DNA of 64,000 nt from Enterococcus phage VRE9_2. A model generated the notes under the pieces. The model was given only the letters and a program-made list of their open reading frames with translations. It did not search any database and had not been told where the DNA came from. Below, one piece after another: positions 16,488 through 59,728 of the stretch. The position numbers were made by a program, and so were the translations under genes. The stretch's first letter is position 1; each line of letters begins with the position of its first letter. The stretch is from sequence record PP680568.1. The stretch is one strand, 5' to 3'.

Positions 16488-16751
16488 CTATATAAGAGAT
16501 GTATCAATTAAAAACGTGAAGGATGTTCCAGTCGCTCTATAAAAAAGAATATCTTTTTTTACATGTTGTAAAGATTCTTCATTTAGATTCAGAGGATTTG
16601 TTTTCCAGAAAGTTTCTAATCTAAATTTTTGAGCTTTTTTAGGTTCATCTGCTACTTCTCTTTTATAAGTTTTAAATGCTTCGTCTTCGTTACGAGCAAA
16701 GATAGCAGCAGAATAAGGGTTTTCTTCTACACTAAAAATAAATACATTCAT
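16488..16751 (-). CDS. Hypothetical protein (87 aa).
   Basis: ORF in an operon between the dUTPase and the resolvase. Confidence 0.45.
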   Translation of the reverse strand: MNVFIFSVEENPYSAAIFARNEDEAFKTYKREVADEPKKAQKFRLETFWKTNPLNLNEESLQHVKKDILFYRATGTSFTFLIDTSLI

Positions 16752-50828: not shown

Positions 50829-50863
50829 AAATGAAAAACTCCCTTTCTTTAACTTATATAAAT

Positions 50864-50892
50864 ATTATATCATTTTAAAAATTACTTTTCAA
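50864..50892 (-). promoter_or_regulatory. Early promoter TTGAAA-17-TGaTATAAT, leftward, driving the 623-aa gene operon.
   Basis: - strand: TTGAAA agtaatttttaaaatga TATAAT, about 35 nt upstream of the start at 50828. Confidence 0.55.
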
Positions 50893-51131
50893 ATAATGTT
50901 TTTTAAAATCTAAACTTTATTTGAATTTTCGTTTCTAAAACTTGATTACAAAACTATTATATAATTTTAAAAAAAGTTTTTCAACCAAGAGCAACAAGGA
51001 TTTCGCCTCTGACTAAAAACGTATTTGACTTTTTTCGTTTAATATATATTTTTATAAATATTTTTTTATATAAAAAGGAAGTTTTTTGTTCGTGCATTAC
51101 AAATCGGCTCCCCCATCATTGCTCTCTTGGG

Positions 51132-51160
51132 TTGACTTTTTTATGTTCAATATATATAAT
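51132..51160 (+). promoter_or_regulatory. Consensus sigma-A promoter TTGACT-17-TATAAT, rightward.
   Basis: TTGACT at 51132-51137 and TATAAT at 51155-51160 with an exact 17-nt spacer. Confidence 0.6.
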
Positions 51161-51198
51161 TAATATAGAGTTTTGAGTAATTCTCAGAGTAAAAATTC

Positions 51199-51227
51199 TT
51201 GACTTTTTGATTATTATATGTTATAAT
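51199..51227 (+). promoter_or_regulatory. Second tandem consensus promoter TTGACT-17-TGtTATAAT, rightward.
   Basis: TTGACT at 51199-51204 and TATAAT at 51222-51227 preceded by TGt. 50 nt upstream of the gene at 51278. Confidence 0.6.
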
Positions 51228-51277
51228 TAATCATAAAGATAAATAAAGAATTAAAATTTGAAGGAGTGTATTTTTAA

Positions 51278-51730: not shown

Positions 51731-53771
51731 ATGTTAAATGTAATGAAAAAAGATGGTCATATTGAAATTTTTGACACGAAGAAAATTCAGGAGGCAATTT
51801 TAGCTTCTGCAAGGAAAATTCTTTCTAATGAAGAAGAATATGATATGCAGCAAAAAGCTTTAATTATTGCGAATGAGGTAGCTCGTTTCTTAAATTCAAC
51901 TGAAGATGAAAATGCAGTTATTATGACATCTAAAATTCATAATGTTGTTCTGGAGATTCTATCCAAAGAATGGGAAGTCGTTGGAGCTTCTTATGGAATG
52001 TATAGAAACTATAGAAAACAAATGGCTAAAACATTTTTAAAAAGTTATGAGGAATCTGAAACTGTACTCCACGATGGAGATAAAGAAAATGCTAATAAAG
52101 ATAGTGATTTGAATAGTACAAAACAAGCTTTAATTGCAAATAATAATATGCGTGGTTATATGGAAACATTTGAAATGGATAAAGATTGGATTGAAGCTCA
52201 TAAACAAGGTTGGATACACATTCATGATTTAGCAGAGCGTTATTTGCGCCAGCAAAATTGTTGTTTGTTTAACATGGCAGGTTTATTAGATGGTGGGTTC
52301 CAATTAAATGGAACAGTTTATGCAGAGCCTAAACATTTTGATTCTGCTATTAATGTAGTAGGAGATGTTACTTTGTTTGCATCTGCACAGCAATATGGCG
52401 GTTTTACTATTCCTGAAATAGATACTGTTTTAGCTAAATACGCTGAAAAAAGTTATCAATCAAATTTAAAATTTATTTTAGATAAATTTGGAGATATTAC
52501 TAATGAAGATATTATGGAAACACTAGAACAAACAGCTTACGACATGACTGTTAGAGAGCTAGAACAAGGCTTTCAAGGCTTTGAAACAAAATTAAATACA
52601 ATTAGTAATTCTTTAGGACAAATTCCTTTTGTAACAATTACTTTTGGTTTGGATACAACTCAATGGGGAAGAGAAATTTCTAAAGCTATTTTGAATGTAC
52701 GGATTAAAGGGATTGGAGAAAATAAATCAACAGCGGTATTTCCTAAATTATCTTTTTTACATAGAAAGGAAATTAATGGAAATCCAGAATCTCCTAATTA
52801 TGATATTAAACAATTAGGGATTCAATGTTCTCGATTAAGATTATATCCTGATTGGCTGTCCCTAGATAGTGGAAATCTTGCAGAAGTATATGAAAGATCT
52901 AATCAAGTTGTATCTGGGATGGGATGTCGAGCATATTTAAGTCCATTTTGGGACGAGCAAGGAAATGAAATTTACACTGGACGATCTAATATTGGAGCCG
53001 TTACATTGAACCTTCCTAAAATTGGTTTAGAATCAAAAGGGGATTGGAATAAATTTTTTGATCTAGTAGATAAATATTCTGATATTGTTTTTGCTATTCA
53101 TGAAGATTATTATACTAAAATTAGTAAAACAAAAGGTTCTTCTAACCCTCTATATTTCTGTGAAGGTGGAGCTTGGACAAAAGTAGGCTATGATGAAGAA
53201 GTTGGGAAGATATATGAAGCTTCAACTGCTTCATTGGGATATATTGGAATTTATGAAACATTAAAAGCAATGAATGTTTCAAAAGAAGAATATCTTAAAT
53301 ATGGGACTAAAATTGTTGCATATTTGAAAAAATTAACAGAAAAAGCTACAATTAATTATAATCATTTATATGCACTTTATTCAACCCCAGCAGAAAGTTT
53401 ATGCTATAGATTCCAGAAAATTAATCGTAAATATTATGGAGTAATTGAAGATGTAACTGATAGAGAGTACATTACAAATTCTTTCCATGTTCCAGTATGG
53501 GAAGATGTTAGCGTTCCTGAAAAAATTGCTTTTGAAGCACCATTCCATAAACTTGCAACAGGTGGGCGAATTTCTTATAATGAATTTGTTTATGGAGTAG
53601 ATAATTCTGTGCTAGAACAAGCAATTAACTTTGCTATGGAAAATGGAATGTATTATGGAGTTAATGTTGTTGCAGGAACTTGTAATCAATGTGGTTATAG
53701 TGGAGATTTCCATGACAATTGTCCTAAATGTGGTACCCATGATATTACAGTAGTAACGAGAGTTTGTGGGT
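51731..53771 (+). CDS. nrdD: Anaerobic ribonucleoside-triphosphate reductase NrdD, exon 1. Ends inside the glycyl-radical motif RVCG|.
   Basis: N-terminal ATP-cone MKKDGHIEIFDTKKIQEAI. Class III RNR core. C-terminal zinc ribbon CNQCG...CPKCG. The continuous reading frame terminates 8 codons after RVCG, where the intron begins. Confidence 0.8.
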
Positions 53772-54797
53772 TAACTATAAAAAGTTCTCTTTAAAAAACT
53801 TAAAGGCTCACGTAAAACAGGATAAATTGCGGGAACATCCTAAAGTTCTTAACTACTAAGCAAATATAGTGATATATTTGTGGCTGAACTAATCACTCAG
53901 GTATAGTAAAAAGGTTAAGAAATTGGACAATCCGCAGCGATACCTCTCATTAGAGAGAGACGTTCAACGACTATAAACCTGCTCTGGCTTAATTTTAAGC
54001 TAAATGTATAGTCTAGTCCGAGATAATATGTAGTATAATAGGAGTTGTTACAGTATAGATTTTTATGTATACATTCATTATACTAAAGATACAAAAGAAA
54101 TATTTTATGTAGGTAAGGGTATAAATAACAGAGCTTATTCAAAAGTTAAACGAAATAAGTTTTGGTGGAATATTGTTAATAAGCATGATTATTGCTTAAA
54201 AATTTTATATTCAAATTTATCAGAAGAAAAGGCTTTCCTTTTAGAGAAGGAATTAATTAAAAATCTAAAAGCTATTGGATTAGCAAAAGCAAACTTCCAT
54301 GAAGGAGGTTCAGGAGGAAATACAATGAAATACGCCCCTCTTGGAGAAATCCAAAAGTGGAAAGAAAGTTTATGCTCCGCTCAACAAAATTTAGATTTAG
54401 AAACTAGACAAAGATTAAGTCAAATTCGTAGTCTAAATGTAAGCGGAGATAAAAATCCTCAATTTAATAAGCCTGGATTTAATACAGGTCGCAAATTTTC
54501 TGATGAACATAAAAATAAAATTAGCAATGCTTTAAAACAATATTCTATGACAGAAGAACACAAACAAAATATAACAAAATCACACAACAAATATCTATTA
54601 AAGGTTATTACAGATAATGGAGAAGAAATGATTTTTAGTTCTCTAAAGGAAGCTTCTGAAACACTAGGAGTTCCTAAGACTACATTATCTAGTTGTGGAC
54701 ATGGAAATAATGGCAGAAACAAAACCCATTATTCTTCCAAATATAAACTTACTGCATATTATCTAACATAAGTATCCCGAAAGGGACGGTAGATTCG
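53772..54797 (+). mobile_element. Group I self-splicing intron (IA2-like core) interrupting nrdD, with an embedded GIY-YIG homing endonuclease gene.
   Basis: Conserved core elements: P AAUUGCGGGAA (53825-53835), Q AAUCCGCAGC (53929-53938), R GUUCAACGACUAUAAAC (53962-53978) and S AUGUAUAGUCUAGUCCG (54004-54020). The R/S halves gacuau/auaguc are complementary and would form P7. The internal guide sequence GGCTCAC (53806-53812) pairs with exon end GTGGGT, and the exon ends in U. Terminal G at 54797. Confidence 0.8.
54034..54771 (+). CDS. Intron-encoded GIY-YIG homing endonuclease (I-TevI-like, with NUMOD3-type repeats and a C-terminal HTH). No canonical start codon lies upstream of the catalytic motif.
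   Basis: Open frame from 54034. GIY-YIG core VYIHYTKDTKEIFYVGKG...R...E. Repeats GDKNPQFNKPGFNTGRKFSDEHKNKISNALK. C-terminal LKEASETLGVPKTTL. First in-frame ATG is at 54325, downstream of the GIY-YIG motif. AGGAG at 54040-54044. An out-of-frame ATG sits at 54065. Confidence 0.6.
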   Translation, partial: YNRSCYSIDFYVYIHYTKDTKEIFYVGKGINNRAYSKVKRNKFWWNIVNKHDYCLKILYSNLSEEKAFLLEKELIKNLKAIGLAKANFHEGGSGGNTMKYAPLGEIQKWKESLCSAQQNLDLETRQRLSQIRSLNVSGDKNPQFNKPGFNTGRKFSDEHKNKISNALKQYSMTEEHKQNITKSHNKYLLKVITDNGEEMIFSSLKEASETLGVPKTTLSSCGHGNNGRNKTHYSSKYKLTAYYLT

Positions 54798-54889
54798 ATT
54801 TATCCTTTGATCAGATTCATGGTGACTCACGTTATAATCCTGGTAAACAAAAAGAAGTTAAAGAAAGAGTTAAACATAATTTCAAATAA
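54798..54889 (+). CDS. nrdD: NrdD exon 2, encoding the C-terminal 30 residues (Y)LSFDQIHGDSRYNPGKQKEVKERVKHNFK.
   Basis: In frame after splicing (t|at = Tyr). Matches the conserved NrdD C-terminus (RVCGYL...N.GK..E...RVKH). Confidence 0.65.
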
Positions 54890-54901
54890 AAGGAGAAATA
54901 T

Positions 54902-55195
54902 ATGAAAGAAAAGGAACAAGAGGTTATTGAAAAGTTATATGCTTATGTATCAGAAATGGATATTGTTTTAGCAGAAAAGAAACTACAAACAATTTCTTTA
55001 ATACTTTTTATTCTTATGGGAGGATATTGTTTAATCTTTTCTTGCCCTGTATTTATTAATATTGTTTCTTTATCCGGCTTAGCTTATTTTGCTTTTACTT
55101 TATTGGCAAATTTAATGCTTGAACAACTTTTGGATAAAGAAATTTCAAAAAATGAAGTTTTATTAGAACAAATTCTTAAAAATAAAGAGAAATAG
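54902..55195 (+). CDS. Hypothetical membrane protein (97 aa).
   Basis: RBS aaaggag. Two hydrophobic helices. Confidence 0.45.
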   Translation: MKEKEQEVIEKLYAYVSEMDIVLAEKKLQTISLILFILMGGYCLIFSCPVFINIVSLSGLAYFAFTLLANLMLEQLLDKEISKNEVLLEQILKNKEK

Positions 55196-55216
55196 AAAGA
55201 AAGGAAGTTTTTTAAA

Positions 55217-55381
55217 ATGATGTTTATTGCAGTTTTTTGTGGGATTTGTATCCTATTATTAATTGGTTCTGGAATGAAAGCAAATATAGGAAGAGATACT
55301 ACGAGATTAGAGAATATGGCTTACTTAATGTTTGCCATATTCTTAATTTTGTTTATCCTAATTTTAATTGGGGGAGCATAA
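55217..55381 (+). CDS. Small hypothetical membrane protein (54 aa), not in the ORF track.
   Basis: RBS AAGGAAG at 9-nt spacing. Two hydrophobic helices (IAVFCGICILLLIGSG and LMFAIFLILFILILIGG). Confidence 0.4.
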   Translation: MMFIAVFCGICILLLIGSGMKANIGRDTTRLENMAYLMFAIFLILFILILIGGA

Positions 55382-55382
55382 T

Positions 55383-55904
55383 ATGGCTTATTTACACAAT
55401 ATAAAAAAATATGATATGGAAAACAGTGGTTTAAAAGGAGCCTCAGTTTCTTTATGGTTTAATCATTGTCCACATCATTGCCCAGGATGCTGGAATTCAG
55501 AAACTTGGGAAAGAAATGAAAACTTATATGAGGATAACCAAGAGGTAATAGAAGAGGTGCTCGATGGTCTTGATGGAGGACCAATGAAATTAAATACTCT
55601 TGCTCTTTTGGGAGGAGACCCTCTCAGTCCTAAAAATATAAAAGATACATTAGAAATTTTATCGGCAGTTAAAACAAAAAGACCAGAGACAGAGGTTATC
55701 TGTTGGACTGGTTTTACTTGGGAACAAGTAACTAAAAGTAAGTTACTTAAACCAGTATTAGAATATTTAGATGTATTAATTGATGGTCGTTTTATGATAG
55801 ACCGTAGAATCGAAGGTAAAAAATATGGTTCTGACAATCAAAGATGTATTGATGTGAAAAAATCTCTTCAATGTGATAAAATATATTTAATGGAGGGATT
55901 TTAA
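55383..55904 (+). CDS. nrdG: Anaerobic RNR activating enzyme NrdG (radical SAM).
   Basis: CPHHCPGC (C-x3-C-x2-C) cluster. Preferred start is the ATG at 55383 with RBS GGGGGAG, rather than the TTG at 55368. Confidence 0.7.
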   Translation: MAYLHNIKKYDMENSGLKGASVSLWFNHCPHHCPGCWNSETWERNENLYEDNQEVIEEVLDGLDGGPMKLNTLALLGGDPLSPKNIKDTLEILSAVKTKRPETEVICWTGFTWEQVTKSKLLKPVLEYLDVLIDGRFMIDRRIEGKKYGSDNQRCIDVKKSLQCDKIYLMEGF

Positions 55905-56212
55905 TGTTTGGTCTTAATAAAAAAACAGAAAAAAATTCTGTGAAAAAGTATCGTAAAAAACCTGTTGAAGTAGAAGTATGGCTTTTTAATAGAGAAAATT
56001 TGGAAACAGCAGAAAGTTGGGTACGCAAGTATTCAGATAAAATGGTTTTATTTTCTCAATATGGTGGAGAAAAAATTTGGATAGAAATAAAAACTTTAGA
56101 AGGTGTAATGAAAGCTTCTGAAGGAGACTATATTATAAAAGGAATCAATGGAGAATTATATCCTTGTAAACCAGATATTTTTCTCAAAACTTATGAAGAG
56201 GTGACAAATTAA
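55904..56212 (+). CDS. Hypothetical protein (102 aa).
   Basis: Start overlaps the nrdG stop (TAATG). Confidence 0.45.
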   Translation: MFGLNKKTEKNSVKKYRKKPVEVEVWLFNRENLETAESWVRKYSDKMVLFSQYGGEKIWIEIKTLEGVMKASEGDYIIKGINGELYPCKPDIFLKTYEEVTN

Positions 56213-57135
56213 TGTATGAAACAATAGTTATAGGTGGCGGACCAGGAGCGATGTCTGCCATTCTTTATTTATCTCGACTTGGTTTAAAAACTGCATGGAT
56301 CTATGGTTATGGTTTTGGAGGACAAATTCAAAATACAGAAGTTGTAGATAATTATCTTGGGAAGGGAAAAATTTATGCCCCAATCTTAGTAAAAGATATG
56401 TACTCTCATGTAGAAGATCTAGAACATGTTACACAAATTTTTGGTATGGCTGAAAATGTTAATAAAATTGATGATTCAACTTTTATAGTAACTACTGATA
56501 CGGGAGAAAAAATTAGTGGTAATACTGTATTAGTTGCAACTGGAGCTTCTCCTAGAAAACTTGGAGTTAAAGGAGAAGAAGATTTTGCTGGTTTTGGCGT
56601 CTCTTATTGCGCTATTTGTGATGCTCCTTTATTTAAAGATAAAGAAGTAGCAATTGTTGGTGGTGGACAAACTGCTTTAGAAGATGCACAAATCCTATCT
56701 CGTCATGCAAAAAAAGTATATTTAATTCATAGACGACAAGAATTTAGAGCAACAAATGCCGAAGTAAAACAAGCAAAAAATACTTCAAATATCCATTTTC
56801 TCTTGGATACACAAGTTACTTCTATCATGGGAGAAGACAAAGTTGATTTTATTGTTATTAATGAAAAGGGAATTGGTCATAGAACTTTATCAGTGGATGG
56901 TATTTTTATAGCTGTAGGACAAGTTCCGCAAACTGATTTTTTAATTGAAAATTTTAATTATATTTTACGAGATGGTTATGTAGAAACGATGAGAAACAAT
57001 AAGGTAGAAGATTTAGGCATCTTTGCCATTGGAGATGTAGTTTATGGGAATAATAAACAAATTGCTATTGCTGTAGGAGAAGGTGCAAATGCCGCAATAG
57101 AAATTAATAAATATTTATCAGATCCTAATTTTTGA
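56212..57135 (+). CDS. trxB: Thioredoxin reductase (FAD/NAD(P)-dependent pyridine nucleotide-disulfide oxidoreductase).
   Basis: FAD motif IVIGGGPGAM. Redox-active CAICDA. Second Rossmann motif VAIVGGGQTA. 307 aa. Confidence 0.75.
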   Translation: MYETIVIGGGPGAMSAILYLSRLGLKTAWIYGYGFGGQIQNTEVVDNYLGKGKIYAPILVKDMYSHVEDLEHVTQIFGMAENVNKIDDSTFIVTTDTGEKISGNTVLVATGASPRKLGVKGEEDFAGFGVSYCAICDAPLFKDKEVAIVGGGQTALEDAQILSRHAKKVYLIHRRQEFRATNAEVKQAKNTSNIHFLLDTQVTSIMGEDKVDFIVINEKGIGHRTLSVDGIFIAVGQVPQTDFLIENFNYILRDGYVETMRNNKVEDLGIFAIGDVVYGNNKQIAIAVGEGANAAIEINKYLSDPNF

Positions 57136-57191
57136 TTTTTTATATATAAAATGTTAATATAAATATATAACAAAATAGGAGGACAAAAATT

Positions 57192-58004
57192 ATGACTGTA
57201 TATGCTATGTCAGATATCCATGGAAATTTTCAAGCCTTAGAAAAAGCTTTAGATTTCTTATTTAATAAAACAAAAATTTCTATTGGTGAAGATAAACTTA
57301 TTTTTCTTGGAGATTATATTGATCGTTCTCCTGATGGATATTCTGTTTTAAAGACTATTTATGATTTACAGCAAAAACATGGAAAAGAAAATATTATTGT
57401 TTTAATGGGAAATCATGATGAAATGTTTTTGGAATGGTTGAAACAGCCTTATAATACTCTTCATCTAATTAATGATAAACCATTAATAACCGTCAAAAGT
57501 TTTATAAAACCTCTTAACAAGGGGTGGAACTTGATTTTTGACGGCGTAAATGCTATTTACGATATAAGTGACCCTAATAATCAAGTTAAAGTTACACAAG
57601 AAGTTGTTGATACAATTAAAGCAGAATATAAAGAATTATTAGATTGGTATCAAGATTTAGATTATTTTTATGAATATGGAAATGCTTTGTTTGTTCATGC
57701 CGGTTTTGAAGAAGTACCAAGCTGGCATTGGACAGATTCTTCTAAAGAAGAAATGACCTGGAAATATCCAGCTTCTTTTGGTTATACTCCGTGGAATAAA
57801 CAAATTGTAGCAGGTCATATAATGACAAGAGAGTTGCATCCAGAAGGAGTTCCCCAAGAGAAAGAAGATTCAATTTATAGAAATAAGGATCATATTTTTA
57901 TTGACGGGGCTACACCAATTACAAATCATATTAATATTTTGGCTTATGATGAAAATGGTTATCTATACTATGATGCTGAGACAGGAGAAATTTTACCAGA
58001 ATAA
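57192..58004 (+). CDS. Calcineurin-like metallophosphatase (Ser/Thr phosphatase, ApaH/PrpE-like).
   Basis: Motifs SDIHGN, GDYIDRSP and GNHDE. 270 aa. Confidence 0.7.
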   Translation: MTVYAMSDIHGNFQALEKALDFLFNKTKISIGEDKLIFLGDYIDRSPDGYSVLKTIYDLQQKHGKENIIVLMGNHDEMFLEWLKQPYNTLHLINDKPLITVKSFIKPLNKGWNLIFDGVNAIYDISDPNNQVKVTQEVVDTIKAEYKELLDWYQDLDYFYEYGNALFVHAGFEEVPSWHWTDSSKEEMTWKYPASFGYTPWNKQIVAGHIMTRELHPEGVPQEKEDSIYRNKDHIFIDGATPITNHINILAYDENGYLYYDAETGEILPE

Positions 58005-58082
58005 CCTAAGCTTTTTATTATCATTATTAATTTTCCCTTTTTATTATCTTTAGCAGAGATAAATAAAGAGAGGAGAATTAAC

Positions 58083-58313
58083 ATGAGAATCAATGCAGAT
58101 AAAATAAGAGAATATAGAGAAGAGCATGGAATTAGCATCGATGAGATGGCTGAAATTCTTAATATAGATGGAGAAGCACTTTATGAATACGAAAGTGGAG
58201 TTCCATGGTTTGAAGAAGATGCCTTAACTATTTTTACGATTAATAATATTTGTGATAATTTAGATTTTATTGCTATAGATGTTGATGAATTATTTGAAGA
58301 ATATAATATTTAA
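58083..58313 (+). CDS. Small acidic hypothetical protein (76 aa).
   Basis: RBS gagaggag. Possibly contains an HTH-like segment. Confidence 0.4.
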   Translation: MRINADKIREYREEHGISIDEMAEILNIDGEALYEYESGVPWFEEDALTIFTINNICDNLDFIAIDVDELFEEYNI

Positions 58314-58322
58314 TTTTATAAA

Positions 58323-58357
58323 ATTCAACTATTGGATTCCCTTTAGTTGAATTTTTT
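58323..58357 (+). terminator. Rho-independent terminator.
   Basis: Stem ttcaacta/tagttgaa followed by TTTTTTT. Confidence 0.6.
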
Positions 58358-58374
58358 TATTTAAAATTATATAA
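58346..58374 (+). promoter_or_regulatory. Promoter TTGAAT-17-TATAAT, rightward, overlapping the preceding terminator.
   Basis: TTGAAT at 58346-58351 and TATAAT at 58369-58374 with a 17-nt spacer. Confidence 0.45.
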
Positions 58375-58410
58375 TATATATATAAGTTAATTAAGAAAGG
58401 AAGTTGCTTA

Positions 58411-58497
58411 ATGAAAGAAGAAATTTTGAACATCCTATTAGTTGATTTGAAAGAAGATTTAGATAGAGAATTAATTGTAGCAGTGGATTTACTTTAG
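58411..58497 (+). CDS. 28-codon leader ORF in the same frame as the RNase H gene and contiguous with it, ending in TAG.
   Basis: ATG at 58411 with RBS AAGGAAG. Stop TAG at 58495-58497, immediately followed in frame by the RNase H reading frame. Confidence 0.35.
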   Translation: MKEEILNILLVDLKEDLDRELIVAVDLL

Positions 58498-58962
58498 GAG
58501 GCGAAAAGTATAGAAAAAATTGTTAAGATTCATGTAGATGGAAGTTACAAGCAAAAAGTAAACCCTAATGTAGCTGGTTGGGGTTTTTGTATTGAAGCAG
58601 AAGAGCAAGAAGTTTTATATACTGCTTCCGGTATCGTAAATAACCCAGTCTCTAGACAAATTGATGGAGAAATTCAAGCCGCCAAAGAAGCTATTAATTG
58701 GTGTCTTGAAAATGTTATAGATAAAGTAAATACAAAAATTGAAATATATCATGATTATGAAGGCTTAGGAAAATGGGCTGATAATCTTTGGAAGACAAAT
58801 AAACCCTTAACTACAGAATATAAACTTTTTGTTTCTAATGCTCGATTCTCAGGACTTAAAGTTTATTTTATATGGGAAAAAGGTCATAATAATAATTTCT
58901 TTAACGAAATTGCAGATGAATTAGCAACTTCTGCTGTTGAAGATTCTGCCAACATAAAATAA
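58498..58962 (+). CDS. rnhA: Ribonuclease H (RNase HI-like). No in-frame ATG/GTG/TTG start is present.
   Basis: Catalytic motifs IHVDGSY (Asp), IDGEIQAAKEAI (Glu), EIYHDYEG (Asp) and GHNNNFFNEIADELA (His/Asp). Perfect SD AGGAGG at 58496-58501 overlaps the TAG. Candidate non-canonical starts are ATA at 58510 and ATT at 58519. Confidence 0.6.
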   Translation, partial: EAKSIEKIVKIHVDGSYKQKVNPNVAGWGFCIEAEEQEVLYTASGIVNNPVSRQIDGEIQAAKEAINWCLENVIDKVNTKIEIYHDYEGLGKWADNLWKTNKPLTTEYKLFVSNARFSGLKVYFIWEKGHNNNFFNEIADELATSAVEDSANIK

Positions 58963-59002
58963 TATTCTATAAGTAGAATAAATAAAAATAGGAGGTTTTA
59001 AA

Positions 59003-59728
59003 ATGAATAAAGATTTATTAGTAAGGGGTGTAAAAAGTACAGTAAAAACAGTAGAAACAAAATTAAATAGAAAAGTTCATTCTGTATATTTAACAGGTAG
59101 TACTCTTTATGGAGTTTCTACTTCCGAAAGTGATTTTGATTTTAAGGTTTATGTATATCCCACTTTTTCAGATTTGTGCTTTAACGAAAAGCTTTCTAAA
59201 GAGGTGGCTGTTAATGAAAATAATGTAGAACATGTCTCTGTAAGAGATGTTCGATTTCAGTATGATGAACTCAATAAATTGTCCCTCAATAGCGCCCACT
59301 TACTTCATCCTCCTCTTTTGGGGAAAAGATTATTCACAGAAGAACAATTAACACAAGTTTTGGAAGAAAGAAAAGATAATTTTCTTTTTAGTCTTGCTGG
59401 CGTCTCTTTGTCAGAATCTAAAAAGGAAGATTCAGGAAAAAAACTTTCAAGAATGTTATTGTTAGAAAATATGTTTACTGCTGTTTTAGAGGATAAATTT
59501 ACCCTAAATTATTTTTTTGATAAAGATTCTTCTAAAGAAGTATTGGTTAGAGAAAATTTTCATAGATATACAGATTTTGCTAAATTAACTCCTGAAGAAT
59601 TAATGTTGACAGCTAAAGATTTTAAAAAAGAATATAAGGTTAATCATAAAAAATTGGAAAATGTTCTAAAAAATCAATTACTACAAACAGTAAAAACATT
59701 TTACAATGTAGGAAAGGAAGTATATTAA
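59003..59728 (+). CDS. Putative Pol-beta-superfamily nucleotidyltransferase (241 aa).
   Basis: N-terminal hG[GS]x9-13Dh[DE]h signature YLTGSTLYGVSTSESDFDF, followed by a further acidic residue (EHVSVRDV). Confidence 0.4.
   Translation: MNKDLLVRGVKSTVKTVETKLNRKVHSVYLTGSTLYGVSTSESDFDFKVYVYPTFSDLCFNEKLSKEVAVNENNVEHVSVRDVRFQYDELNKLSLNSAHLLHPPLLGKRLFTEEQLTQVLEERKDNFLFSLAGVSLSESKKEDSGKKLSRMLLLENMFTAVLEDKFTLNYFFDKDSSKEVLVRENFHRYTDFAKLTPEELMLTAKDFKKEYKVNHKKLENVLKNQLLQTVKTFYNVGKEVY

Follow-up and report, generated by a model that had tools for sequence, protein, structure and literature searches.

How is a phage gene translated when its reading frame contains no canonical start codon? The question is raised by a locus of Enterococcus phage VRE9_2 (PP680568.1), which belongs to the ~140-kb Enterococcus myophages of the EF1/EF5/H1/VRE9_3/VRE9_4 group and of which we analyzed a stretch of 64,000 nucleotides, referred to here as the window. 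A frame encoding a predicted ribonuclease H (RNase H) lies behind a 28-codon ORF, and between the TAG that ends this small ORF and the TAA of the RNase H frame there is no in-frame ATG, GTG, TTG, or CTG. The features of the locus are as follows.

58320..58362, plus strand: intrinsic terminator 3' of the HTH gene (58083-58313), with a hairpin at 58320-58355 followed directly by a T run
58347..58375, plus strand: candidate sigma-A/sigma-70-type promoter, TTGAAT-17 nt-TATAAT
58395..58403, plus strand: Shine-Dalgarno (SD)-like GAAAGGAAG, read from the sequence, 7 nt 5' of the ATG of the small ORF
58411..58497, plus strand: 28-codon upstream ORF, ATG at 58411 and TAG at 58495-58497, encoding the peptide MKEEILNILLVDLKEDLDRELIVAVDLL
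58496-58501, plus strand: perfect SD AGGAGG, overlapping the TAG of the upstream ORF
58510..58962, plus strand: type 1 RNase H coding sequence, 150 codons plus TAA (58960-58962), with ATA at 58510-58512 as the proposed start

A sequence-only reading had described an RNase H frame without ATG, GTG, or TTG, preceded in the same frame by a small ORF with AGGAGG placed across its stop and 8 nt from an in-frame ATA. All of these elements were confirmed at their coordinates, and CTG is now added to the missing codons. The two ORFs are co-directional, the gap from the TAG to the ATA is +12 nt, the spacer between AGGAGG and ATA reads cgaaaagt, and the frame is open from the ATA to its stop. Among open frames of 100 codons or more in the window, no other stand-alone one lacks every canonical start; two further frames without one are antisense shadows of long genes. 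We propose that the RNase H is functional and that it is probably translated from the near-cognate AUA at 58510, served by the AGGAGG 8 nt upstream. Non-AUG initiation had been one of the options listed at the outset, and it emerges as the best reading of the locus.

The RNase H frame matches Pfam PF00075 with 40.6 bits (cut-off 25.8), and residues 4-143 align with profile positions 3-140 of 141. Five residues, D10, E54, D82, H126, and D136, are invariant in a six-sequence alignment, which bears out the initial recognition of an RNase HI homolog with its catalytic motifs. The catalytic set used for comparison was that of E. coli RNase HI (D10, E48, D70, H124, and D134). Pairwise mapping to the E. 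coli enzyme confirmed D10, E54, H126, and D136; the E. coli D70 was misplaced in the global pairwise alignment, and D82 was assigned from the HDYEG motif. Relatives in the PDB are 2kq2 (E 3e-9) and 3h08. We conclude that the locus encodes a type 1 RNase H, predicted to act as an RNA:DNA-hybrid nuclease.

The ATA occupies the position of the N-terminus in this family. Specifically, it lies nine codons before the catalytic Asp of the DGS motif, and the other phage RNase H loci (n = 34) all have a canonical in-frame start, mostly 5-9 codons before that Asp. M1 of the Chlorobium RNase H (3h08) aligns with the ATA-encoded residue (MEKTITIYTDGA vs MEKIVKIHVDGS). The ATA also aligns, given a one-codon indel, with the ATG of a 68% ortholog, whose N-terminal codons are ATG-AAA-AAC-ATT-AAA-ATT-CAT, where most members of the clade have ATA-AAA-AAG-ATT-ATT-AAG-ATT-CAT and the window has ATA-GAA-AAA-ATT-GTT-AAG-ATT-CAT. 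It is thus the ATA, and not the upstream ORF, that matches the N-termini of homologs. The AUA-initiated protein is predicted to begin (f)M-EKIVKIHVDGSYK, as the initiator tRNA inserts Met.

The placement of the SD is in keeping with initiation at this codon. In the 25 genes of the window led by GGAGG, the spacing from SD to start is 7-10 nt, and the 8 nt between AGGAGG and ATA fall inside this range; a scan of the window for an SD motif followed by a near-cognate codon returned mostly positions within long genes. The near-cognate codons in the RNase H frame are ATA, ATT, and ATC only, and the next one after the ATA is ATT 58519. Initiation at this ATT or at ATT 58528, both of which are in frame, would yield a protein 3-6 residues shorter, and ATT is a known weak start in infC and pcnB of E. 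coli and cvfC1 of S. aureus (PMC13009471). These codons, however, lie 17 and 26 nt from AGGAGG, outside the 7-10 nt range of the phage, and ATT 58519 has become ACT in several relatives (KKTIK in L001, L005, L013, and L015) while the ATA is invariant. To a start at one of them we give almost no credence.

The conservation of the locus was assessed in 11 haplotypes, from five GenBank phages, one IMG/VR contig, two Logan assemblies, and three metagenome contigs, which are related at ~94% nucleotide identity. The TAG, AGGAGG, 8-nt spacer, and ATA are kept in 11/11 sequences, AGGAGG and ATA each being invariant, although the invariance of a 3-nt codon among such close relatives (~94%) carries little weight alone. 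An exact-pattern scan of IMG/VR gave no match because the sole IMG/VR relative has AGC, not AGT, in the spacer. A canonical start before the conserved domain is absent in nine of the ten other haplotypes, and the exception, VRE9_4, has an internal TTG only, initiation at which would remove the catalytic D10. An ATG-started variant of ~150 aa and >90% identity was not found in a search of 5.8 billion proteins.

The RNase H gene is under purifying selection. Across the 11 haplotypes its pN/pS is 0.087, its variable columns are distributed 10/6/48 over the three codon positions, and no frameshift or premature stop is present. These data bear directly on the proposal that the gene is a silent relic, in which the start has been lost, translation is nil or negligible, and the gene still looks intact because the loss is recent. 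Such a relic would lack a canonical start, as this gene does, the gene was skipped by annotators in four of the five GenBank relatives, and the clade is shallow (~94% identity). Nevertheless, a pS of 0.18 vs a pN of 0.015 has accumulated since an ancestor that already carried the ATA, and the catalytic residues are invariant and the perfect SD is retained. We regard a relic as highly improbable, and the pseudogene option raised from the sequence is abandoned given an intact frame in which third-position changes dominate.

The 68% ortholog (Logan metagenome, P0004; loci L006-L010) provides the evolutionary setting. It resembles the VRE9_2 locus in the order phosphatase, HTH protein, RNase H and in the context of the N-terminus, but it differs in having an ordinary ATG preceded by AAAGGTGG, in its intergenic region of 81 nt, and in the lack of an upstream ORF. 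The sequence-only reading had foreseen that orthologs with a plain ATG might speak against it, with the anomaly traced to an assembly error. The first of these was found in the 68% ortholog; assembly error was rejected, as the identical architecture is present in 11 independent sequences, and the anomaly is real and conserved. We propose that an ancestral ATG, retained in the 68% syntenic ortholog, was changed to ATA in the lineage of VRE9_2, and that the same lineage may have gained a new leader, with a promoter of its own and a 28-codon ORF whose stop lies on the SD of the RNase H.

The hairpin of the terminator of the HTH gene has a predicted free energy of -14.8 kcal/mol (z = -6.5; 0/200 shuffles fold as well); an analogous terminator follows the HTH gene at the homolog locus L019. 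The -35 hexamer of the candidate promoter sits within the descending arm of this terminator, and both hexamers are invariant in five aligned sequences. The promoter matches the consensus at 10/12 positions but is to be taken as no more than a match to the consensus, as such matches are no more frequent across the region than in shuffles. We infer that it would drive an mRNA with the 28-codon ORF as its first ORF. The SD-like GAAAGGAAG is conserved in relatives, with an A-to-G change to GGAAGGAAG in three of them. Rfam families were searched in 53500-59200 at E values up to 0.1 without a match, hence there is no known riboswitch or leader in this region.

The upstream ORF has the same length and frame in all 11 haplotypes, and its variable columns are 1/0/4 with a pN/pS of 0.09, from five sites only. 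It was seen in this phage clade only and, at this base composition, 28 open codons have a chance expectation of ~10% by a rough estimate. Its predicted product, which includes the peptide MKEEILNILLVDLK, has no Pfam match, and no homologs of the 28-aa peptide were found outside the clade in 50,697 phage records. The low diversity seen in the upstream ORF was not accepted as a sign of specific constraint, since the entire block 58005-58509, including the HTH gene, is less diverged than its flanks (97-98% vs 93-95%).

The stop of the upstream ORF overlaps the SD of the RNase H, and the gene could therefore be reached by termination-reinitiation. In the obligatory form of this mechanism only ribosomes fresh from the 28-codon ORF, held by the SD, would restart at the AUA 12 nt further on, such that the output of RNase H is set by translation of the upstream ORF and not by fresh 30S binding. 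Several observations are in line with it. A good SD stands 7 nt before the upstream ORF, which is the first to follow the predicted promoter. Neither its length nor its frame varies, four of its five variable sites are third positions, and it co-occurs with the ATA in the clade, both being missing in the 68% ortholog. In addition, the start of the Twortvirinae RNase H is overlapped by a small upstream ORF, and reinitiation is known to operate over short distances with the help of initiator tRNA and IF2 (PMC2268962, PMC10666635). On the other hand, a perfect SD at optimal spacing should suffice for fresh initiation, and AUA sites of S. aureus initiate without need of an upstream ORF (PMC13009471). 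Coupling also drops steeply with distance and is gene-pair-dependent already at +2 to +14 nt (PMC10666635). The statistics in favor of a coding upstream ORF are weak (five sites, about p = 0.045), in a block that is under-diverged overall. Nor does any RNA structure sequester the SD that upstream translation could open. Folding prediction around the SD and the ATA gave nothing significant (z of -0.06 and +0.63), so that the site is predicted to be unstructured and should be accessible, and on these values we rejected a structure masking the SD until the upstream ORF is translated. Obligatory termination-reinitiation is in our judgment possible but doubtful. The sequence fits fresh SD-directed arrival and termination-reinitiation alike.

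We hold as unlikely a further version in which the leader is a dedicated device for ribosome delivery, termination of the 28-codon ORF on the SD being required and RNase H arising solely by non-AUG termination-reinitiation. With such a leader the level of RNase H might be tuned by the activity of IF3 during infection, an intron-encoded homing endonuclease might be attenuated likewise, and in one variant readthrough of the UAG may also yield, at a low level, an isoform that bears an N-terminal helix of 33 residues.

Readthrough of the TAG as the main route to the protein is a separate matter. Here the TAG at 58495 would be decoded by amber suppression or recoding to give an RNase H of 183 residues with a 33-residue N-terminal extension from the ATG at 58411. 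Both ORFs are in frame, and the upstream ORF plus the four-codon linker have a single non-synonymous change in the 11 haplotypes. N-terminal domains are present on some distant RNase H homologs, and public collections contain ‘fusion’ proteins that carry Q in place of the stop, namely P0001, with 70 member sequences, and P0002. The DNA beneath P0001 and P0002, however, reads TAG, and P0002 turns a second, downstream TAG into Q as well; hence these are calls made under a TAG-recoding code and not sense codons, and true CAG variants behind them were rejected. The analogy is to code 15 TAG-recoded phages and to the Q-beta A1 readthrough, where an in-frame stop likewise lies between a short and a longer ORF, and TAG-recoding gene callers produce a fused protein here as they do with code 15 phages. 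Unlike those systems, there is no suppressor tRNA, there are no other in-frame TAGs, and TAG is a stop elsewhere. The search for a suppressor tRNA that had been suggested gave none on the phage side, as there is no tRNA in the window and a CUA anticodon is found in none of the 19 tRNAs of the complete relative genome H1.

The use of TAG in the window is that of a stop codon. Among ~71 ORFs the stops are TAA in 58, TGA in nine, and TAG in four, and the earlier impression that TAG is rare here was roughly right. TAG terminates other ORFs of the window, and code 11 yields a coding coverage of 92.7%, with the gaps accounted for by the RNase H locus, an intron, and one intergenic region. A second TAG-ending gene, on the minus strand at 16488-16751, has behind it, in the same frame, a gene with an ordinary ATG start, and such a neighbor thus also arises by chance; in-frame placement behind a small ORF is not special in itself. 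From the geometry of the ribosome, the SD that overlaps and follows the stop should not pair with the anti-SD while the TAG is in the A site. A G after the stop codon, as is found here, is not known to make termination leaky in E. coli, and the extension is without any homolog in Pfam or in 50,697 phage records. The readthrough option of the sequence-only reading is thus not sustained, and we consider it very unlikely as the source of the RNase H, although the shared frame and the coding-like substitutions of the upstream ORF mean that a minor readthrough product is possible.

The tRNAs of H1 were also considered in relation to the AUA itself. They include no tRNA-Met, and an initiator-like tRNA reading AUA was rejected, the tRNA-Ile(UAU) of H1 being an ordinary elongator because A1-U72 is paired and the anticodon stem has no run of three G-C pairs.

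We therefore return to direct initiation at the AUA and put forward a mechanism in which the perfect AGGAGG 8 nt upstream would position the ribosome on this codon. The weak AUA start probably keeps the synthesis of RNase H well below the level of an ATG, and ribosomes that terminate on the upstream ORF, 12 nt short of the ATA, may boost initiation by partial translational coupling. AUA starts with strong extended SDs have been mapped in S. aureus by retapamulin ribosome profiling, in infC, ccpN (also in B. subtilis), and citZ, and reporters with AUA starts reached ~10-30% of the AUG level (PMC13009471). In E. coli, AUA reaches ~1-2% of AUG (bioRxiv 10.1101/063800), and the genome paper of SPP1 mentions AUA only in a codon-usage table. 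As AUA is a poor initiator, the level of the protein could be very low.

The RNase H resembles these S. aureus genes in having AUA at the normal position of the N-terminus and a strong SD at the optimal Gram-positive spacing in the same host phylum, with a similar attenuation expected (~10-30% of AUG in reporters; PMC13009471). It differs from them in being a phage nuclease gene and in that its proposed start comes after a 28-codon ORF that looks translated and has its stop on the SD. It likewise recalls the AUU starts of E. coli infC and pcnB, which are IF3-sensitive and weak (PMC13009471), in that a non-canonical AUN codon would limit expression and IF3 is expected to discriminate against it; codon, organism, and gene all differ, and there is no sign of autoregulation here. 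The co-directional ORFs, the first stop within the second SD, and the +12 nt gap are features of coupled gene pairs (Huber et al., 2019, 2023, PMC6728339, PMC10666635; Yoo and RajBhandary, 2008, PMC2268962). Typical pairs, however, have a 4- or 1-nt overlap and restart at AUG or GUG, whereas here the restart codon would be AUA behind an upstream ORF of 28 codons, and a gap of +12 nt is in the range of partial coupling, which varies between gene pairs (PMC10666635). Also comparable is the Twortvirinae RNase H (phiIBB-SEP1 SEP1_182, vB_MscM-PMS2 WBF82131), a member of the same family with 30-37% identity from large Bacillota myophages, with a small ORF abutting or overlapping the start of the gene. 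Those genes have ATG starts, and the overlap of their upstream ORFs with the start is 11-13 nt; these ORFs are 62-64 aa long and have no similarity to the 28-aa peptide.

A second gene of the window, a GIY-YIG homing endonuclease in the nrdD intron, also appears to start at ATA. Its frame begins at 54034 and has an internal ATG at 54325, and the ATA at 54055 is preceded by AGGAG and 10 nt and coincides with the N-terminus of homologs. The split group I intron itself was not detected by the Rfam search of 53500-59200. We counted the AGGAG-10 nt-ATA pattern in support of an AUA start for the RNase H.

The consequences for annotation are immediate, as a conserved and selected phage gene has been missed by standard gene finders. 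The RNase H is unannotated in EF1, EF5, H1, and VRE9_3, it appears in VRE9_4 as a TTG-started fragment without the catalytic Asp, and spurious ORFs, most of them antisense, have been annotated across the locus in both VRE9_3 and VRE9_4. Large protein collections, in turn, hold artefactual “fusion” proteins of 181-195 aa in which the TAG is read as Gln.

The locus would provide a natural phage case of AUA behind a perfect SD in the Bacillota, the phylum of the recent S. aureus mapping, and weak start codons are a known means of keeping expression low. A leader that delivers ribosomes, if true, would be an undescribed phage strategy for throttling nucleases. The two lineages form an evolutionary before and after pair, with an ATG and no upstream ORF in one and an ATA, an upstream ORF, and a stronger SD in the other, and the locus offers a compact test case for asking if a weak start codon can be compensated for, or regulated, by a short ORF ahead of it.

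The RNase H locus lies on the plus strand and comprises two open reading frames in the same frame, arranged as follows:

58411 to 58497 (+): upstream ORF of 28 codons, from ATG 58411 to TAG 58495-58497, product MKEEILNILLVDLKEDLDRELIVAVDLL
7 nt ahead of ATG 58411 (+): the Shine-Dalgarno sequence (SD) of the upstream ORF, GAAAGGAAG
58496-58501 (+): AGGAGG, the SD ahead of the RNase H frame, overlapping the TAG of the upstream ORF
between AGGAGG and ATA 58510 (+): spacer of 8 nt, cgaaaagt
58510 to 58962 (+): RNase H frame, from ATA 58510 to TAA 58960-58962, encoding 150 residues

These are read directly from the sequence, and re-reading reproduced exactly the arrangement described in the sequence-only reading. 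A codon-by-codon check of the RNase H frame likewise agreed that ATG, GTG and TTG are absent in frame after the TAG, and CTG is absent as well. The 150-residue product matches Pfam PF00075 at 40.6 bits (cut-off 25.8 bits) in an alignment that begins at residue 4, its closest solved structures are 2kq2/2kw4 and 3h08, and D10, E54, D82, H126 and D136 are invariant when it is aligned with five homologs. Judged by these matches, it is a type 1 RNase H, as had been claimed from its catalytic motifs.

By megablast, the window groups with the Enterococcus phages EF1, EF5, H1, VRE9_3 and VRE9_4 (~135-142 kb, about 94% identity). We compared 11 distinct haplotypes of the locus, namely the window, four of the five GenBank records (PP680570, PP680569, MF001358 and OP534061, at loci equivalent to window 58411-58962), one IMG/VR contig, two Logan assemblies and three metagenome contigs. 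The TAG, the AGGAGG, the 8-nt spacer and the ATA are common to all of them, the spacer differing only in the IMG/VR contig, where AGT is replaced by AGC, and an assembly error at the RNase H start is therefore rejected. The option of a pseudogene is also rejected: none of the 11 haplotypes carries a frameshift or internal stop in RNase H, pN/pS within the clade is 0.087 (pS 0.178, pN 0.015), and variable columns fall 10/6/48 on codon positions 1, 2 and 3. The same figures make it highly improbable that the gene is an intact but silent relic. This pattern indicates purifying selection ever since the clade's common ancestor, in which the ATA was already present, and the gene is in all likelihood translated. 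Among relatives, identity across the block 58005-58509, which covers the HTH gene and the small ORF, is 97-98%, versus 93-95% in the flanking genes; a recent exchange by recombination may account for this, or else additional constraint on a regulatory block. In one Logan contig (SRR6109213, positions 1-1500) the gene for the Ser/Thr phosphatase (window 57192-58004) is missing, and the HTH gene comes almost directly after a thioredoxin-reductase-like gene.

Only seven relatives were found among 5.8 billion proteins. The 68%-identical ortholog P0004 follows, as in the window, a metallophosphatase gene and then the gene of a small HTH protein; it has an ordinary ATG start preceded by AAAGGTGG, and its 81-nt intergenic region holds no upstream ORF. 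Allowing a one-codon indel, the start regions of the clade and P0004 align codon by codon:

most clade members: ATA-AAA-AAG-ATT-ATT-AAG-ATT-CAT
window: ATA-GAA-AAA-ATT-GTT-AAG-ATT-CAT
P0004 ortholog: ATG-AAA-AAC-ATT-AAA-ATT-CAT

From this alignment, the ATA would be explained most simply as a G-to-A change of an ancestral ATG. The sequence-only reading had named an ATG-started ortholog, with the anomaly traced to misassembly, as what would overturn it; such an ortholog does exist, but the anomaly is real. A 45% relative also starts at ATG, and the 52% relative P0005 (L019:817-1443) probably starts at a TTG at about position 844, 7 nt behind TAGGGGGA; this TTG agrees better than ATG 817 with the usual N-terminus of the family, and the P0005 call probably extends too far upstream. 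A canonical in-frame start is present in 34/34 further RNase H loci from IMG/VR, mostly 5-9 codons ahead of the catalytic Asp and otherwise farther upstream, where an N-terminal domain may be encoded. The clade, with its ATA 9 codons ahead of the catalytic Asp, is the only RNase H group compared that lacks a canonical start.

We propose that AGGAGG would direct ribosomes to AUA 58510 of a functional RNase H gene, whose output is likely attenuated by this start and possibly helped by the upstream ORF. This mechanism, whose non-AUG start was among the options raised earlier, is the best supported and we consider it probable. In 25 window genes GGAGG stands 7-10 nt ahead of a canonical start (7, 6, 6 and 5 genes over the four spacings), a range that includes the 8 nt from GGAGG to the ATA, and in the alignment with the Chlorobium enzyme 3h08 the residue encoded by the ATA falls on Met1. 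Initiation at another near-cognate codon is scarcely credible, since the next in frame, ATT 58519, lies 17 nt from the SD and is ACT in four relatives. No significant RNA structure is predicted around the SD and ATA. In S. aureus, AUA starts at infC, ccpN and citZ were mapped by retapamulin ribosome profiling, that of ccpN being conserved in B. subtilis; strong, extended SDs precede all three, and AUA reporters reached about 10% of the AUG level, a figure that rose to 30% for ccpN when the medium was rich (PMC13009471). The yield from AUA, AUC, AUU and CUG in E. coli is 1-2% of AUG (bioRxiv 10.1101/063800). The S. aureus starts are a recent experimental precedent for the proposed RNase H AUA start, which likewise lies behind a strong SD.

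Two further plus-strand elements precede the upstream ORF:

58320-58362 (+): hairpin followed by a T run, predicted terminator (-14.8 kcal/mol, z = -6.5)
58347-58375 (+): TTGAAT-17-TATAAT, candidate promoter by consensus match

The hairpin is predicted to end the HTH transcript, and TTGAAT-17-TATAAT is a plausible promoter; if it is real, the RNase H mRNA would have the 28-codon ORF as its first. That this ORF is a real feature is suggested by its own SD, its unchanged length in all haplotypes, its variable columns (1/0/4 by codon position, pN/pS 0.09) and its co-origin with the ATA, as the ATA start and the upstream ORF, with its new leader and stronger SD, emerged jointly in the clade lineage. 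However, the substitution pattern comprises five sites only, within the under-diverged block, and no counterpart of the peptide turned up in Pfam or, beyond the clade, in 50,697 phage records. Reinitiation drops steeply with distance: its efficiency already differs from one gene pair to another when the gap is +2 to +14 nt, and little of it is left at about 20-38 nt (PMC10666635). It works through initiator tRNA and IF2, and IF3 lowers it (PMC2268962). The 12 nt between the upstream stop and the ATA thus make partial coupling plausible, but it is just as conceivable that ribosomes passing over the SD block it for a short time. A strictly obligatory termination-reinitiation at the AUA is a sub-variant of the proposed mechanism that seems rather unlikely. 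In the Twortvirinae a small ORF also abuts the RNase H start, but there RNase H starts at ATG and the small ORF is unrelated and overlaps the start by 11-13 nt.

Amber readthrough of TAG 58495-58497, which would yield an N-terminally extended RNase H, is very unlikely. Its apparent counterparts in the databases, P0001 (181 aa, 70 member sequences) and P0002 (195 aa), have Gln at the TAG, but their DNA (L011:391-936 and L012:1501-2088) reads TAG and does not translate to the listed proteins, and in P0002 a second, downstream TAG is also read as Q. We reject them as true fusions; they stem from gene calling on short contigs with a code in which TAG means Gln. No suppressor tRNA was found: the window has no tRNA genes, and the 19 tRNAs of the complete H1 genome include neither a CUA anticodon nor a tRNA-Met. 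The H1 cluster (L018:14068-22996, record positions 114068-122996) is some 8-17 kb away from RNase H, its equivalent being beyond the window, and includes a tRNA-Ile(UAU), an ordinary elongator reading AUA as Ile. Under code 11, ORFs cover 92.7% of the window and end in TAA (58), TGA (9) or TAG (4). After a second TAG-ending gene, an ATG-started RuvC-like gene comes next in frame, and in-frame adjacency can therefore arise by chance. From ribosome geometry, the SD should be unable to pair with the anti-SD while the TAG is in the A site and so could not act as a recoding stimulator. Readthrough is thus unlikely to be more than a trace event, with nothing in its support.

A second AUA start may exist in the same phage, in a 1026-bp insertion in nrdD (window 53772-54797, +) that is absent from 5/5 relatives:

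51731-53771 and 54798-54889 (+): nrdD exons on either side of the insertion
54034-54771 (+): homing endonuclease frame, with a GIY-YIG-like N-terminus and NUMOD3 and I-HmuI-like motifs

Splicing out the insertion gives a 710-aa NrdD (699/710 identical to that of H1), and its borders resemble those of a group I intron, T being the last base of the 5' exon and G the last base of the insert. An Rfam search of the insert region detected no intron, probably because the ORF splits it. The endonuclease frame, whose N-terminus reads IDFYVYIHY...EIFYVGKG, has no canonical start ahead of ATG 54325; 10 nt separate AGGAG (54040-54044) from ATA 54055, and the alignment with homologs begins at residue 2-3. 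Two AGGAGG motifs precede the internal ATG 54325 (window 54303-54327, +), the second 7 nt away, and a start there would yield the DNA-binding part only (148 aa); an abundant truncated product could be made beside a rare full-length nuclease. Separately, 449 nt at 50829-51277, near a minus-to-plus strand gene switch, hold no ORF of at least 40 aa and may be a divergent promoter region.

RNase H is unannotated in EF1, H1 and VRE9_3, and likewise in EF5 according to its feature summary (a record of identical length and megablast score). The locus is empty of annotation in EF1, EF5 and H1; over it, in VRE9_3 and VRE9_4, PHANOTATE places small, spurious and mostly antisense ORFs with scores near zero. 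In VRE9_4, PHANOTATE also calls a 113-aa RNase H fragment that lacks the catalytic D10, from an internal TTG that occurs only there. The main immediate value of the analysis is that the annotation of RNase H is put right and the database artefacts are flagged. Beyond this, the locus is a clean natural test case for a leader ORF compensating a weak start.
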